The notes beneath the pieces were generated by a model. It did not search any database, was not told where the DNA came from, and saw only the letters and a program-made list of their open reading frames with translations. Shown piece by piece: positions 39,594-44,251 of a DNA stretch of 64,000 nucleotides (the first letter of the stretch is position 1; each line of letters starts with the position of its first letter). The DNA lies in the NCBI GenBank assembly GCA_045577965.1, contig JAZNJI010000002.1, forward strand, positions 4,323 to 68,322, written 5' to 3'. Both the position numbers and the translations under genes were made by a program. This stretch comes from Paludibacteraceae bacterium (GTDB lineage: Bacteria; Bacteroidota; Bacteroidia; Bacteroidales; Paludibacteraceae).

Positions 39594-39696
39594 TAGTTAT
39601 AAACTATGAGTGATAAGTGATGAGGCAAGAATTGCGGCGCAAGCCGCATTCTCCCCGCCTTTACACTTTACACCTTACACTTTACACTATACACTA
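39594..39696. repeat. word-array / mini-hairpin repeat
   Basis: gtgataagtgatgagg, the hairpin gaattgcggcgcaagccgcattc, then cctttacactttacaccttacactttacactatacac. Confidence 0.8.
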
Positions 39697-39714
39697 AAAC
39701 AAAAAACAGAATTT

Positions 39715-39837
39715 ATGAAAAAAGTATATATCGCGCCTCAAACAGAGGCAATTGAGCTCCTAGGAGAAAACGCCATCATGGTAGGCAGTTCCCTAATTAT
39801 TGGATCTGGCGAAGGTGATGGTGGCGGCATGGGCTAA
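39715..39837 (+). CDS. possible 40-aa peptide with Gly-rich C terminus
   Basis: MKKVYIAPQTEAIELLGENAIMVGSSLIIGSGEGDGGGMG. It lies between a hairpin after the surface-protein gene and the first conserved cassette hairpin. No TAnnTTTG box lies in front of it. Confidence 0.3.
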   Translation: MKKVYIAPQTEAIELLGENAIMVGSSLIIGSGEGDGGGMG

Positions 39838-39882: not shown

Positions 39883-39915
39883 CACCACAACCGCTCACTC
39901 TGGGCGGTTGTGGTG
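39883..39915 (+). repeat. conserved cassette hairpin, copy 1
   Basis: caccacaaccgc-tcactctgg-gcggttgtggtg. The 3' flank ttagtccactctttcagaaaaaa is shared with copy 2. Confidence 0.85.
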
Positions 39916-39976
39916 TTGTTAGTCCACTCTTTCAGAAAAAATAAGCCCAATAGTTGCATATTTCAAAAAAAAACAT

Positions 39977-39984
39977 TACCTTTG
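39977..39984 (+). promoter_or_regulatory. -7 box TACCTTTG, cassette 1
   Basis: Preceded by ttgcatatttcaaaaaaaaa, directly after hairpin copy 1. Confidence 0.7.
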
Positions 39985-40034
39985 CAGCGAAAATCTGTAG
40001 CATGATACAAAAATATTAAATAAAACTATGTTTT

Positions 40035-40166
40035 ATGAGTGCAACCGATTACTTAAATAATGCACAAGAGTGGTTAGCTCAGCAATCTCAAAGAACGATT
40101 GATTACCAATGGGAGATTCAGCATCACAACCAAATGCACAAAGCCTACGAAACCTCACTAGTATAA
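40035..40166 (+). CDS. possible 43-aa protein (cassette 1)
   Basis: Manual translation gives MSATDYLNNAQEWLAQQSQRTIDYQWEIQHHNQMHKAYETSLV. It starts 51 nt after a TACCTTTG box and is followed by conserved hairpin copy 2. Confidence 0.25.
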   Translation: MSATDYLNNAQEWLAQQSQRTIDYQWEIQHHNQMHKAYETSLV

Positions 40167-40202
40167 AGCCATCATTCTACTACACACCATTTGATATTCC
40201 AT

Positions 40203-40234
40203 CTCACAACCGTTCTCTCAGGGCGGTTGTGGTG
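40203..40234 (+). repeat. conserved cassette hairpin, copy 2
   Basis: ctcacaaccg-ttctctcagg-gcggttgtggtg, followed by tttagtccactctttcagaaaaaa. Confidence 0.85.
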
Positions 40235-40326
40235 TGTTTAGTCCACTCTTTCAGAAAAAAACATATCGAATAATACTAAATTGCATAAATTTTGTACAAT
40301 AATTTTCAAATTTCAAAAATTTATTG

Positions 40327-40334
40327 TATCTTTG
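40327..40334 (+). promoter_or_regulatory. -7 box TATCTTTG, cassette 2
   Basis: 28 nt before the DUF4160-like ATG. Confidence 0.7.
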
Positions 40335-40361
40335 CAAGCGAAAACAAGAAAATAACATGCC

Positions 40362-40652
40362 ATGCCTAAAGTTCTACAGTATATTACTGCTTATTTTACT
40401 TGGGTTTTTCTCTTCTACGGAACAGATGTCAACGAGAATCGTGCTCATGTACATGTCGGTAAACGTGGCGTAGATAAATTTTGTAAAATTTGGTTAGAAC
40501 CGTTTATTAGTATCGCGGATGCTGGCGATTTAACTCTATCGCAACAAAAGCAAGTTTTACAAATTGTTGAGGAGCAACAAGATAAACTATTGAAGCAATG
40601 GGCATTATTCAAAGAGGGGAAACCTATTAAAATGTTAACCATTAAACGCTAA
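40362..40652 (+). CDS. DUF4160-like protein
   Basis: 96 aa. The N terminus with the NENRAHVHVGKRG His-rich block resembles DUF4160. It is paired with a DUF2442-like gene 7 nt downstream. Confidence 0.55.
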   Translation: MPKVLQYITAYFTWVFLFYGTDVNENRAHVHVGKRGVDKFCKIWLEPFISIADAGDLTLSQQKQVLQIVEEQQDKLLKQWALFKEGKPIKMLTIKR

Positions 40653-40659
40653 TATAACT

Positions 40660-40923
40660 ATGTGTAAAGTAGAAGGATATTGGAATATTACTCCAAAAAT
40701 CAAATGTGTATCTTTCCCTATCCGTGGAAAGATGTCTGTAAAGTTGGAAGATGGTCGTGTGATTATTGTTCCTCTTTCTTCGTTTCCATCCATAAAAAAG
40801 GTTCCTGTCAAGGACCGCTCTAAATGGTATTTAATGGGCGGTGGAGTGACATGGGATAGTTGTCCTGAAGTTATTCATATTGAGCAGATATTAGGTAATT
40901 ATCAGAATTATCAACACGAGTAA
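40660..40923 (+). CDS. DUF2442-like protein
   Basis: 87 aa. VKLEDGRVIIVPLSSFPSIKKVPVKDRSKWYLMGGGVTWDSCPEVIHIEQIL fits the DUF2442 pattern as I recall it. Confidence 0.6.
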   Translation: MCKVEGYWNITPKIKCVSFPIRGKMSVKLEDGRVIIVPLSSFPSIKKVPVKDRSKWYLMGGGVTWDSCPEVIHIEQILGNYQNYQHE

Positions 40924-40985
40924 AAACTGCGTTTCTCCACGCAATCACAAAAACCTGTGCACACCACAGATCTTATAACCCCATC

Positions 40986-41016
40986 CCACAACCGCTCACT
41001 CTGGGCGGTTGTGGTG
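40986..41016 (+). repeat. conserved cassette hairpin, copy 3
   Basis: ccacaaccgc-tcactctgg-gcggttgtggtg, followed by tttttagga. Confidence 0.85.
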
Positions 41017-41090
41017 TTTTTAGGAGTAGCACTTTGTGAAATAATAGGCACTTATTTTATATAACACTTGCATATTTCATTTTTTTTCTG

Positions 41091-41098
41091 TACTTTTG
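41091..41098 (+). promoter_or_regulatory. -7 box TACTTTTG, cassette 3
   Basis: Preceded by cttgcatatttcatttttttt, 30 nt before ATG 41128. Confidence 0.7.
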
Positions 41099-41127
41099 CA
41101 CGGATTTTGTAGATTAATTATTAGACT

Positions 41128-41343
41128 ATGAATACACAAACATTAAACTTTACCATATTCTGTATTGGTAATGTAGCAGAATATCTCAAGATAAATGCCC
41201 GCGATGTATATCATAAAATGCAACAAGCGGACATGATATCTTCTTATATCGTGCCATGCTACGATGTCCTACATTCATTCTCTAAAGAATATATCGTCGA
41301 GGATCTTGTTAACCACATGAAGCAGAAAGGAGTATTACAATGA
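41128..41343 (+). CDS. DUF3791-like small protein
   Basis: 71 aa. It overlaps the downstream DUF3990-like gene by 4 nt, and a paralogous small ORF follows that gene. Confidence 0.5.
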   Translation: MNTQTLNFTIFCIGNVAEYLKINARDVYHKMQQADMISSYIVPCYDVLHSFSKEYIVEDLVNHMKQKGVLQ

Positions 41344-41813
41344 TTACTCTTTATCACACATCCAATCAAGAAGTGCCACAACCTGATGTTCTGCATTCTA
41401 GACAGCACCTCGACTTCGGACGAGGTTTCTACCTAACACCTATCTACGAACAAGCTAAGAAATATGGCGAACGCTTCTTACGCAAAGGCGAAGAAGCATA
41501 CATCAATGTGTATGAACTCGACGAAGATTTAACTGGCTTTACCAAAAAAGTATTTGAGCAATACGACAATCAATGGTTGGATTTTGTTACTGCTTGCAGA
41601 AAAGGACATGACCATCCTCACTATGACATTATAGAAGGAGGTATTGCAGATGACCAAGTGTTCAACACTATAGATTTGTATTTTGCAGGAATATACACTT
41701 ATGAACAAGCCCTTGATCAACTGCGCTACAAGAAACCCAATCATCAGATGTGTATAACAAATGCTAATCTTCTAAAAGAGAAATTACATTTTATTGAATC
41801 GATCAAACTTTAA
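41340..41813 (+). CDS. DUF3990-like protein with PARP/ART-like H-Y-E signature
   Basis: 157 aa. LYHTS (His), GRGFYLT (Tyr) and DIIEGGIADD (Glu) occur in the order and spacing typical of H-Y-E ADP-ribosyltransferases. Confidence 0.55.
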   Translation: MITLYHTSNQEVPQPDVLHSRQHLDFGRGFYLTPIYEQAKKYGERFLRKGEEAYINVYELDEDLTGFTKKVFEQYDNQWLDFVTACRKGHDHPHYDIIEGGIADDQVFNTIDLYFAGIYTYEQALDQLRYKKPNHQMCITNANLLKEKLHFIESIKL

Positions 41814-41818
41814 CTACT

Positions 41819-42028
41819 ATGGAAGCTAATCCGATTATTCTTCAACAGAAATACGCACGTATTGTACAATTGTTCGCAAATAAAGCCGGTTATTCATATG
41901 AGCAAGCGTTGGGAATGTTCTACGACTCCAAAACTTTTGAATTAATCAGCGAAGGAGTAGCTGATATGCATTGCCTAAGCGATGAATACCTCGCTGACGA
42001 ACTCTGCATTGAATATAATATCCACTAG
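41819..42028 (+). CDS. DUF3791-like small protein (second copy)
   Basis: 69 aa. It begins 5 nt after the DUF3990-like gene and is followed by conserved hairpin copy 4. Confidence 0.5.
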   Translation: MEANPIILQQKYARIVQLFANKAGYSYEQALGMFYDSKTFELISEGVADMHCLSDEYLADELCIEYNIH

Positions 42029-42053
42029 ACATCAAAACTCTTTGAACTTATCT

Positions 42054-42083
42054 CCCAACCGCTCACTCAGGGCGGTTGTGGTG
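42054..42083 (+). repeat. conserved cassette hairpin, copy 4
   Basis: cccaaccgc-tcactcagg-gcggttgtggtg, followed by tgtttagga. The left arm is 2 nt shorter. Confidence 0.8.
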
Positions 42084-42100
42084 TGTTTAGGAATATACTG

Positions 42101-42933: not shown

Positions 42934-43638
42934 ATGAACAACCGAATACTACTGAAACTTTCAGGCGAAAGCCTCATGGGCGCACAGCAATACGGTATTG
43001 ATCCTCAACGCCTATCTGACTATGCCAACCAAATTCACAACATCGCTAACACTGGCCTACAAGTAGCTATCGTCATCGGTGGAGGCAATATCTTCCGCGG
43101 ACTCAGCGGCGCACAAAAAGGCTTTGACCGCGTCAAAGGCGACCAAATGGGCATGCTAGCCACCGTGATCAACTCGCTCGCACTCTGCTCCGCATTGGAG
43201 GCTGTAGGACAAAAAGCACGCGTGATGACTAGCGTACGCATGGAGCCAATCGGCGAACTATACACAGCTGACAAAGCACTTCGCCTATTGAGCAAAGGAT
43301 ATGTAGTGATCGTGGCTGGTGGCACTGGCAACCCATACTTCACTACCGACACCGCTTCCGTACTCCGCGCCATCGAACTCAAAGCAGATGTGATGATGAA
43401 GGGCACACGCGTGGACGGCATCTACACCGCTGACCCAGAGAAAGACCCTACGGCTACCAAATACACTCAGATCACCTACGACGAGATCCTGGAGATGAAG
43501 CTCAAGGTCATGGACCTCACAGCCATCACCATGTGCCGTGAGAACAACATGCCAATCTATGTTTTTGACATGGACACCGTAGGCAACCTCGAAAAAGTAA
43601 TCAACGGACAACAAATAGGAACACTGGTCAAGCCATAG
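42934..43638 (+). CDS. pyrH: UMP kinase
   Basis: ILLKLSGESL, VIGGGNIFRG and TTDTASVLRAIE are present. Confidence 0.95.
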   Translation: MNNRILLKLSGESLMGAQQYGIDPQRLSDYANQIHNIANTGLQVAIVIGGGNIFRGLSGAQKGFDRVKGDQMGMLATVINSLALCSALEAVGQKARVMTSVRMEPIGELYTADKALRLLSKGYVVIVAGGTGNPYFTTDTASVLRAIELKADVMMKGTRVDGIYTADPEKDPTATKYTQITYDEILEMKLKVMDLTAITMCRENNMPIYVFDMDTVGNLEKVINGQQIGTLVKP

Positions 43639-43642
43639 GCTT

Positions 43643-43716
43643 GGTGTAGAATGGTATAGGATAGTATAGAAGTGGTATAGGATGGTATAGAATAGTATAG
43701 AAGTGGTATAGGATGG
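43643..43716. repeat. C-free word array upstream of four-helix-bundle gene 1
   Basis: ggtgtagaatggtataggatagtatagaagtggtataggatggtatagaatagtatagaagtggtataggatgg. Confidence 0.9.
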
Positions 43717-44117
43717 TTGGATTTGCTACGAAAATAGAAGATTTGAGGATATGGCAAAATGCTCGTACTATCAGTAAAGCTATATACAGCCTCACTTACC
43801 ATGATAACTTTGAGAAAGATTATCGCTTTGTACAACAAATTCGCGCCGCTGCAGGATCTATAATGGATAATATTGCAGAAGGATTCGGAAGAAGTGGAAG
43901 CAAAGAATTTATACAATTTCTTTATATTGCAAGAGGCTCTTGCCAAGAAGTTATTAGCCAACTATACCGTGCATGGGATATTCAATATATTTCTGAGGAA
44001 GAATTCACAGAAACTAAAAAACAGGTCGAGACAACTTCTGTTATGATTTATAACCTAATAGATAATCTCAAGCAATCAGAAAACAAAGGTCCCAAGTACA
44101 GCCCTACACCCCACTAA
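43713..44117 (+). CDS. four-helix-bundle protein (23S rRNA IVS protein / Avd-like family)
   Basis: IEDLRIWQNA...FVQQIRAAAGSIMDNIAEGFGRSGSKEFIQFLYIARGSCQEV is the family signature. A paralog lies at 62361-62762. Confidence 0.8.
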   Translation: MVGFATKIEDLRIWQNARTISKAIYSLTYHDNFEKDYRFVQQIRAAAGSIMDNIAEGFGRSGSKEFIQFLYIARGSCQEVISQLYRAWDIQYISEEEFTETKKQVETTSVMIYNLIDNLKQSENKGPKYSPTPH

Positions 44118-44251
44118 ACCACCCTATACAACCCTACACAGCGCGAAGCGCTACTAAACAACCCTATACAATACTACACAGCGCAAAGCGCTACTAAACA
44201 ACCCTAAACAACCCTACACAACCCTATACAACCCTATACAACCCTATACAA
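44103..44251. repeat. G-free word array with two GCGAAGC-type mini-hairpins downstream of four-helix-bundle gene 1
   Basis: ccctataca/ccctacaca words plus agcgcgaagcgct and agcgcaaagcgct. It runs up to the frr ATG. Confidence 0.9.

Follow-up and report, generated by a model that had tools for sequence, protein, structure and literature searches.

In a 64,000-nucleotide stretch of the genome of a Paludibacteraceae bacterium (GenBank assembly GCA_045577965.1, contig JAZNJI010000002.1, positions 4,323 to 68,322 of the forward strand; hereafter the window), three short genes lie head to tail and encode, in order, a DUF3791 protein, a DUF3990 protein and a second DUF3791 protein, here called A, B and C. 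A preliminary description of this DNA had assigned the triad to these families, read the middle protein as an ADP-ribosyltransferase (ART) of the PARP and diphtheria toxin type, and likened the whole to toxin-antitoxin (TA) or toxin-immunity modules. The family names hold, with Pfam scores over the cut-off for all three proteins. A matches DUF3791 (PF12668) at 71.5 bits (cut-off 25, E 5.9e-20) and B matches DUF3990 (PF13151) at 159.4 bits (cut-off 32.2, E 6.8e-47), its residues 2-151 corresponding to profile positions 1-152; C passes the DUF3791 cut-off of 25 marginally, at 25.9 bits. The PADLOC-DB models recognise A as PDC-M13A (E 5.4e-28), B as PDC-M13B (E 5.2e-54) and C as PDC-M13C (E 2.5e-32), and B additionally matches the related models PDC-M10A and PDC-M42A. 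With three adjacent genes on one strand that match the A, B and C models, the triad qualifies as a self-contained operon of three PDC-M13 genes, and we regard its identification as PDC-M13 with an ART-fold enzyme as close to certain.

PDC-M13 was put forward as a phage-defence candidate by Payne, Hughes, Fineran and Jackson in 2024, who call the PDC systems untested (bioRxiv 10.1101/2024.01.29.577857), and in a survey of the rumen it was called 3324 times in 6530 genomes (PMC13356809). The preliminary description was aware of no characterised function for this arrangement. That is accurate as regards experiments, but the arrangement had already been catalogued in PADLOC as PDC-M13. In components, size and coupling the window triad is the same as the catalogued system, all three models match it strongly, and nothing essential sets it apart. 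As to setting, it is not embedded in a defence system and belongs to an array of hairpin-bounded cassettes that precedes pyrH. None of the three proteins has a match in PHROGs.

Reading of the open reading frames (ORFs) confirmed the gene coordinates and plus strand of the preliminary description, and with them the tight coupling that it had pointed out: A and B overlap by 4 nt (ATGA), and 5 nt separate the stop of B from the start of C (Table 1). Upstream of A lies TACTTTTG, which we take to be a Bacteroidota-type -7 motif on the assumption that the Bacteroides promoter consensus is TAnnTTTG; a sigma-70 scan returned no site above chance. The hairpin upstream of this motif resembles a terminator for the cassette before the triad, and the one downstream of C a terminator for the triad operon itself.

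Table 1. Features of the triad and its boundaries, in window coordinates
Feature	Coordinates	Strand	Description
Gene A	41128..41343	+	71 aa, DUF3791, PDC-M13A; presumed partner/neutraliser of B
Gene B	41340..41813	+	157 aa, DUF3990, PDC-M13B; predicted ART-fold effector, presumed toxin
Gene C	41819..42028	+	69 aa, divergent DUF3791 paralog, PDC-M13C; putative second partner of B
Promoter-like -7 motif TACTTTTG	41091..41098	+	30 nt 5' of the ATG of A; read from the sequence only
Conserved GC-rich hairpin followed by T-run	40986..41014	+	Terminator-like site, 13-pair stem; upstream boundary of the triad cassette
Conserved hairpin (42056-42078) with T-rich tail	42056..42088	+	Terminator-like site; downstream cassette boundary; aligns with the other hairpin copies

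Fold and active site of the DUF3990 protein

DUF3990 belongs to the ART clan of Pfam (PMC7955679). We assembled 61 diverse DUF3990 members, whose alignment was used for the AlphaFold2 (AF2) model of B and for the conservation counts given below. Sub-threshold matches to ART-PolyVal (PF18760) were found in 30 of these members (best E 1e-4) and to PARP in two; B itself scores 13.8 bits against ART-PolyVal, below the gathering score of 31.2. The AF2 model has seven strands and five helices, at a predicted local distance difference test (pLDDT) score of 95.2. Comparison of such a model by Foldseek, one of the checks suggested in the preliminary description, came out on the side of an ART. In the PDB, the top 25 matches are nearly all ARTs of the His-Tyr-Glu (H-Y-E) clade, with template modelling (TM) scores of 0.36-0.45, and include exotoxin A domain III (the best, E 0.039), tankyrases, PARP10/14/15 and cholix toxin. 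Among predicted viral structures (BFVD) there are eight matches at E<=1e-3; the top one is an unnamed entry (E 1e-12, TM 0.77), ART-PolyVal proteins are among the next (E 2e-4 to 8e-3), and PARP-domain proteins and a DarT-annotated protein (rank 34) appear lower down, the ART-PolyVal and PARP matches together spanning E 2e-4 to 1e-2. Sequence searches of the PDB, with B alone and with the 61-sequence profile, returned nothing meaningful. Because the Pfam clan, the sub-threshold ART-PolyVal matches, the AF2 model and the structural matches in BFVD and the PDB agree, the prediction that B has an ART fold of the H-Y-[E/D/Q] clade is supported.

The nearest family of B is ART-PolyVal, and its kinship to enzymes of the PARP and diphtheria toxin type is remote. 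ART-PolyVal is closest both by sequence and by fold, and an hhalign comparison with three ART-PolyVal domains (E 0.002, probability 13%, shallow profiles) brought out a common His, an aromatic residue, an [FY]D motif, a second Asp 8-9 residues past [FY]D, and an NQI motif. However, ART-PolyVal is a domain of the giant multi-domain polyvalent proteins of phages and conjugative elements, whereas B is a stand-alone protein of 157 aa, and DUF3990 adds two helices (residues 105-129) and dedicated DUF3791 partners. With PARP and with diphtheria toxin and exotoxin A, which top the PDB list, B has in common a similar order of secondary structure elements and the motifs 'hYHGS' and 'GxGFY', but these matches are non-significant, the catalytic Glu is not conserved in DUF3990, and B is much smaller and has no regulatory or targeting domains. 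In a sample of 400 genomes of the phylum, only three PARP genes and one ART-PolyVal gene were found.

The preliminary description had placed an H-Y-E triad on three strings of B, all of which are present: LYHTS at residues 4-8, GRGFYLT at 27-33 and DIIEGG at 96-101. The ART kinship that it proposed and the first two of these residues stand. H6 is conserved in 59 of the 61 family members and Y31 in all of them, and 55 have an aromatic residue 11 positions after Y31, a spacing that we take to be the one at which diphtheria toxin and PARP1 have their second NAD-stacking Tyr. In B, the His and the Tyr that bind NAD are intact. The third residue does not stand. E99, the Glu of DIIEGG, is Glu in 16/61 members and Ile in 28/61, and the three other copies in the same genome have Tyr, Ile and Tyr in its place. 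An hhalign comparison with three bacterial PARP catalytic domains (E 0.01, probability 4%, shallow profiles) sets H6 against WHGS and Y31 against LYFA, and places YD96II opposite the 'YDSV' strand instead of the catalytic 'NNE' one. Since E99 is not conserved, it is wrong to build a PARP-type H-Y-E triad on DIIEGG. Although the order of the motifs is present in the window protein and the top PDB matches come from the H-Y-E clade, we give almost no credence to an H-Y-E enzyme of the PARP and diphtheria toxin type whose catalytic Glu is that of DIIEGG.

Other residues are far better conserved than E99. D96, which directly precedes the strand 97-100, is present in 61/61 members, D105 at the start of the next helix in 58/61, and Q136 at the start of the strand 136-139 in 60/61; W79 and R87 are also among the invariant residues. 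Because of the strand order, Q136 may be the positional counterpart of the PARP Glu.

Partner proteins, gene order and fusions

The confident AF2 model of A (pLDDT 95.7) is a bundle of five helices (residues 3-20, 24-33, 36-41, 45-48 and 53-67), and Y45 and H49 are invariant. BLASTP detected no similarity between A and C, so that profile-profile comparison was needed to reveal their kinship: hhalign of the A-family against the C-family alignment gave a probability of 85% and E 6e-6 over 53 columns. By this measure A and C are distant paralogs, and the 'small paralogs' of the preliminary description are related as it had proposed, if distantly. Searches for helix-turn-helix (HTH), ribbon-helix-helix (RHH) and AbrB domains in A and C gave no significant match, the best being the MADS1 HTH model of NCBIfam with A (E 0.027; 14.7 bits, cut-off 80). 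In each of the genome's four triads, A and C range from acidic to neutral. The idea that DUF3791 is a classical antitoxin of the HTH or RHH kind is not supported, as Foldseek gave the model of A no relative in the PDB, and neither the DNA-binding searches nor the charge make A and C look like such proteins.

The order A-B-C is found at all four DUF3990 genes of this genome and at 14/14 close relatives of B from other genomes. In a sample from the genus and the order, 41 further B genes comprise 32 in A-B-C order, one in C-A-B order, five preceded by a fused C-A gene, one A-B pair, one orphan and one divergent long form, so that a DUF3791-type partner adjoins B in 39/41. Because the triad recurs at 4/4 and 14/14 genes and a partner at 39/41, the arrangement is far beyond chance. 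At one locus (L053, G013:C62:897-4044), two complete and diverged A-B-C triads stand head to tail within 2 kb, as tandem paralogous cassettes.

All three pairings also occur as fusions in other organisms. C is joined to the C-terminus of B in P0133, P0143, P0165, P0270 and P0272, and A to B in P0235; on Bacteroides plasmids, a 149-aa protein consists of an N-terminal half that matches PDC-M13C and a C-terminal half that matches PDC-M13A. The gene order is permuted on a Moraxella plasmid, where B-C-A stands in a type I restriction-modification (RM) operon and fits the other PDC-M13 model set. The permuted order and the fusions in all pairings argue for one three-part complex, which we infer that A, B and C form.

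The orphan is a DUF3990 gene (L031, G021:C17:112855-114916) whose two neighbours encode proteins of 150 aa and 88 aa, the latter with the look of a winged-helix protein. On the same contig and 29 kb away lies a DUF3990 gene with a fused C-A partner (L034), whose B protein looks closely similar to the orphan, as judged by the near-identical upstream partner and the hit score and not by direct comparison. Neutralisation of the orphan in trans by this partner is possible.

Distribution and cassette context

The 2.2-Mb genome carries four diverged triads, in which B proteins share 34-41% identity and the A and C proteins 16-36%. Partners that diverge faster than the enzymes are what one would expect if cognate pairs avoid cross-talk. 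In the genus the distribution is patchy, with matches in 23 of 36 other genomes and one to five in each. Relatives are found on 86 plasmids, 28 of them conjugative, and on only 4 phage contigs. There are plasmid hits in Clostridium botulinum and C. tetani as well. The plasmid carriers include the ~98-kb pMMCAT and 35-kb conjugative plasmids of many Bacteroidales species, and HipBA and zeta-toxin modules adjoin. On a Bacteroides pMMCAT plasmid (L019, 573-1755), for instance, a phosphoribosyltransferase and SLOG-family pair, an IS4 transposase, a fused-partner DUF3791/DUF3990 pair and HipBA are found together, and this 8.6-kb block is also a separate small circular plasmid record from Parabacteroides (L020). 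The cassette of the Moraxella plasmid is located between hsdM and hsdS of the type I RM system, and some gene calls are fused to HsdS fragments.

DUF3990 also serves as a variable C-terminal toxin tip of Rhs effectors of the type VI secretion system, in Serratia and Enterobacter, where a presumed immunity gene comes after each effector (PMC4524185, PMC10763514, PMC12165300). Given its tight coupling, its use as an Rhs toxin tip and its mobile distribution, the toxin-antitoxin-like or immunity-like reading of the preliminary description is reasonable, and we infer that this accessory, multi-copy cassette is a toxin-antitoxin-like conflict module.

In one related genome (G002; L018 4001-4471, L036 and L062, contig C10) both B copies are cut short by an in-frame TAG that comes 8-16 codons too early, by which the last strand of B is lost; A and C are intact. 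Recoding of TAG was considered and rejected. The rpoB and translational GTPase genes of this genome have no in-frame stops, so the B genes are truncated and not recoded. As circumstantial evidence, these truncations fit selection against active B. The public record of the contig is labelled 'Mycobacteriaceae bacterium' and looks like a mislabelled Bacteroidales bin.

In the window, the triad is part of an array (39889-42090) of short cassettes, each of which ends in a near-identical hairpin (at ~39889, 40204, 40986 and 42056) composed of CCACAACCGC..GCGGTTGTGG followed by a T-run. A second array, with five related hairpins, follows another large surface-protein gene (G000, contig C28:31266-36954). 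A related strain (L005) has the triad at the same place, with a B protein that is 99% identical and DNA that is 94.5% identical across the triad. It does not have window positions 39923-40985, which correspond to exactly one hairpin-to-hairpin interval, that holding a DUF4160/DUF2442 pair. This hairpin-bounded modularity fits a mobile conflict cassette.

The DUF4160/DUF2442 pair (window 40362-40923), which makes up the cassette next to the triad, itself resembles a toxin-antitoxin module, and its DUF4160 protein (96 aa; the DUF2442 protein has 87 aa) has a weak, sub-threshold match to the DhiT type II toxin. Immediately after the large surface-protein gene, at 39610-39837, comes a small ORF that has the appearance of a precursor peptide; the C-terminal part of its product reads MKKVYIAPQTEAIELLG... 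and continues into a Gly-rich tail, and it is conserved in the related strain. Further downstream, a gene for a 23S rRNA intervening-sequence (IVS) protein (PF05635; window 43624-44236) lies between pyrH and frr. In the related strain pyrH and frr directly adjoin without it, which makes it an insertion/deletion polymorphism.

Proposed function and its alternatives

We lean, though not strongly, towards the view that this PDC-M13 operon with its ART-fold enzyme acts as a toxin-antitoxin-like abortive infection or addiction system. In this scenario, A and C would bind B in a three-part complex and hold it inactive. Were the complex disturbed, B would be freed to modify an essential target with NAD+ as its substrate, and the cell would cease to grow. 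The trigger may come from a phage, as one of its products, or from loss of the cassette or plasmid, after which the partners decay, and the outcome would be abortive infection or post-segregational killing. By analogy with the characterised small ARTs of the clade, the target would most likely be nucleic acid or the translation machinery. As to the partners, we favour regulated lids or sensors over merely labile antidotes, because the stable fusions have a parallel in toxin-antitoxin sensors that are themselves fused, such as CapRel. It is a rather speculative extension, to which we assign a low probability, that A and C form a pseudo-dimeric clamp of a new fold that would be both inhibitor and infection sensor of an H-Y-D or H-Y-Q ART targeting nucleic acid once released.

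The best functional analogy is CmdTAC (PD-T4-9), in which antitoxin and chaperone keep hold of an exotoxin-A-like ART until a phage capsid protein frees it to ADP-ribosylate mRNA (PMC11618068). Like CmdTAC, the triad is a three-gene operon with an H-Y-[E/D/Q]-clade ART and two small partners that may join it in a complex. However, the partners here are a paralogous pair of helical DUF3791 proteins and not a SecB-like chaperone together with an antitoxin that has a chaperone-addiction tail; no such chaperone was found, and PADLOC returned no PD-T4-9 match at E<=1. The triad would also resemble DarTG, a single-stranded DNA ADP-ribosyltransferase paired with a macrodomain protein, in that both are TA-like operons associated with defence and built on a small toxin of ART fold. 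Neither the operon nor its flanks contain a macrodomain, and the operon has no other enzyme that removes ADP-ribose; therefore neutralisation would be by binding and not by reversal. The Rhs tips of Serratia marcescens (Rhs5-CT) and Enterobacter bugandensis (RhsA) use the same Pfam domain as an exchangeable antibacterial toxin with a small immunity gene downstream, but B, in which DUF3990 spans residues 2-151 of 157, has no N-terminal delivery region and no Rhs, PAAR or other delivery domain, and is an intracellular, stand-alone protein. The operon thus belongs neither to CmdTAC nor to DarTG nor to the Rhs toxins, whereas B counts as an ART-superfamily protein by its fold and by two of the three signature residues. 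Nor does A or C show the features of the DNA-binding, autoregulating antitoxin of a type II TA system.

Several observations weigh against the proposed abortive infection or addiction system. The canonical catalytic Glu appears to be missing, with D96, D105 and Q136 as candidate replacements, and the residue after the His, Gly in 49/61 family members as in an H-G-S motif, is Thr in the clade of the window protein. By Foldseek, B has no PDB match at E 1e-3 (E>=0.039, TM<0.5), and the hhalign probabilities of 4% with PARP and 13% with ART-PolyVal are low. A and C are unlike classical type II antitoxins and have neither a DNA-binding signature nor a known fold; the model of A has no structural relative in the PDB (best Foldseek E 3). 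Stable fusion of a partner with the enzyme is not what a labile antitoxin would predict, and the orphan DUF3990 gene has no DUF3791 partner beside it. The immediate neighbourhood of the triad in the window holds no RM or clustered regularly interspaced short palindromic repeat (CRISPR) genes and is no classical defence island. Full-text literature searches for DUF3990, DUF3791, PDC-M13, PDC-M10 and PDC-M42 found no experimental paper.

The genomic setting could also be explained by a module that serves purely for addiction or stabilisation of mobile DNA and has no anti-phage role. The plasmid-borne relatives (86, with 28 conjugative) and the TA modules that adjoin them would suit such a role, as would the hairpin-bounded array with its DUF4160/DUF2442 pair and the absence of RM and CRISPR genes nearby. 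However, the PDC listing itself is based on members that are embedded in type I RM operons. Many TA modules serve both roles and the two readings are compatible; we consider a purely addictive function unlikely. A different enzyme activity is conceivable as well. B could be an NAD+ glycohydrolase that kills or arrests the cell by NAD+ depletion, like other ART-fold effectors and the TIR and SIR2 effectors of defence systems, with A and C as its inhibitors. The absence of the canonical acceptor-activating Glu, E99 being Glu in 16/61 members only, with the NAD-binding His and Tyr kept, is in line with hydrolysis, and the evidence on the fold is equal for transfer and hydrolysis. We nevertheless consider this quite unlikely, given that transferase activity is annotated or known for the nearest families (ART-PolyVal, PARP, exotoxin A, DarT) and that the further invariant residues W79, R87, D96, D105 and Q136 suggest a defined acceptor site.

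A benign role would make B an NAD-dependent modifier of a small molecule, as are the rifampin ARTs, or of RNA ends, as is Tpt1, with A and C as specificity or assembly subunits. Stable fusions of B with its partners are as expected of enzyme subunits, one B gene stands as an orphan, and B is acidic (isoelectric point ~5), which is unusual for a nucleic-acid-binding toxin. Against this, Rhs effectors use the same domain for their toxin tip, the family has a patchy, multi-copy, plasmid-rich distribution, the cognate partners diverge fast, and in one genome B is truncated with its partners intact. We regard a benign modifier as very unlikely.

What the preliminary description observed is real save for the Glu, and is in that sense partly confirmed; its reading of an ART-like toxin module is partly supported and broadly right. 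The window itself adds one more member to PDC-M13, which is among the commonest candidate defence systems of gut and rumen Bacteroidales and is common on Bacteroides conjugative plasmids too. Several details may be useful for testing the family, namely the four diverged triads in a small genome, the fusions in all three pairings and the corrected list of residues. If B proves to be a toxin that acts on a new target, and if the DUF3791 pair inhibits or senses in a way not seen before, PDC-M13 would represent a third mechanistic type of ADP-ribosylation-based immunity, after DarTG and CmdTAC. Should A and C act as the clamp described above, three-part ART defence systems of this kind, fused forms included, would make up a new mechanistic class that differs from both.

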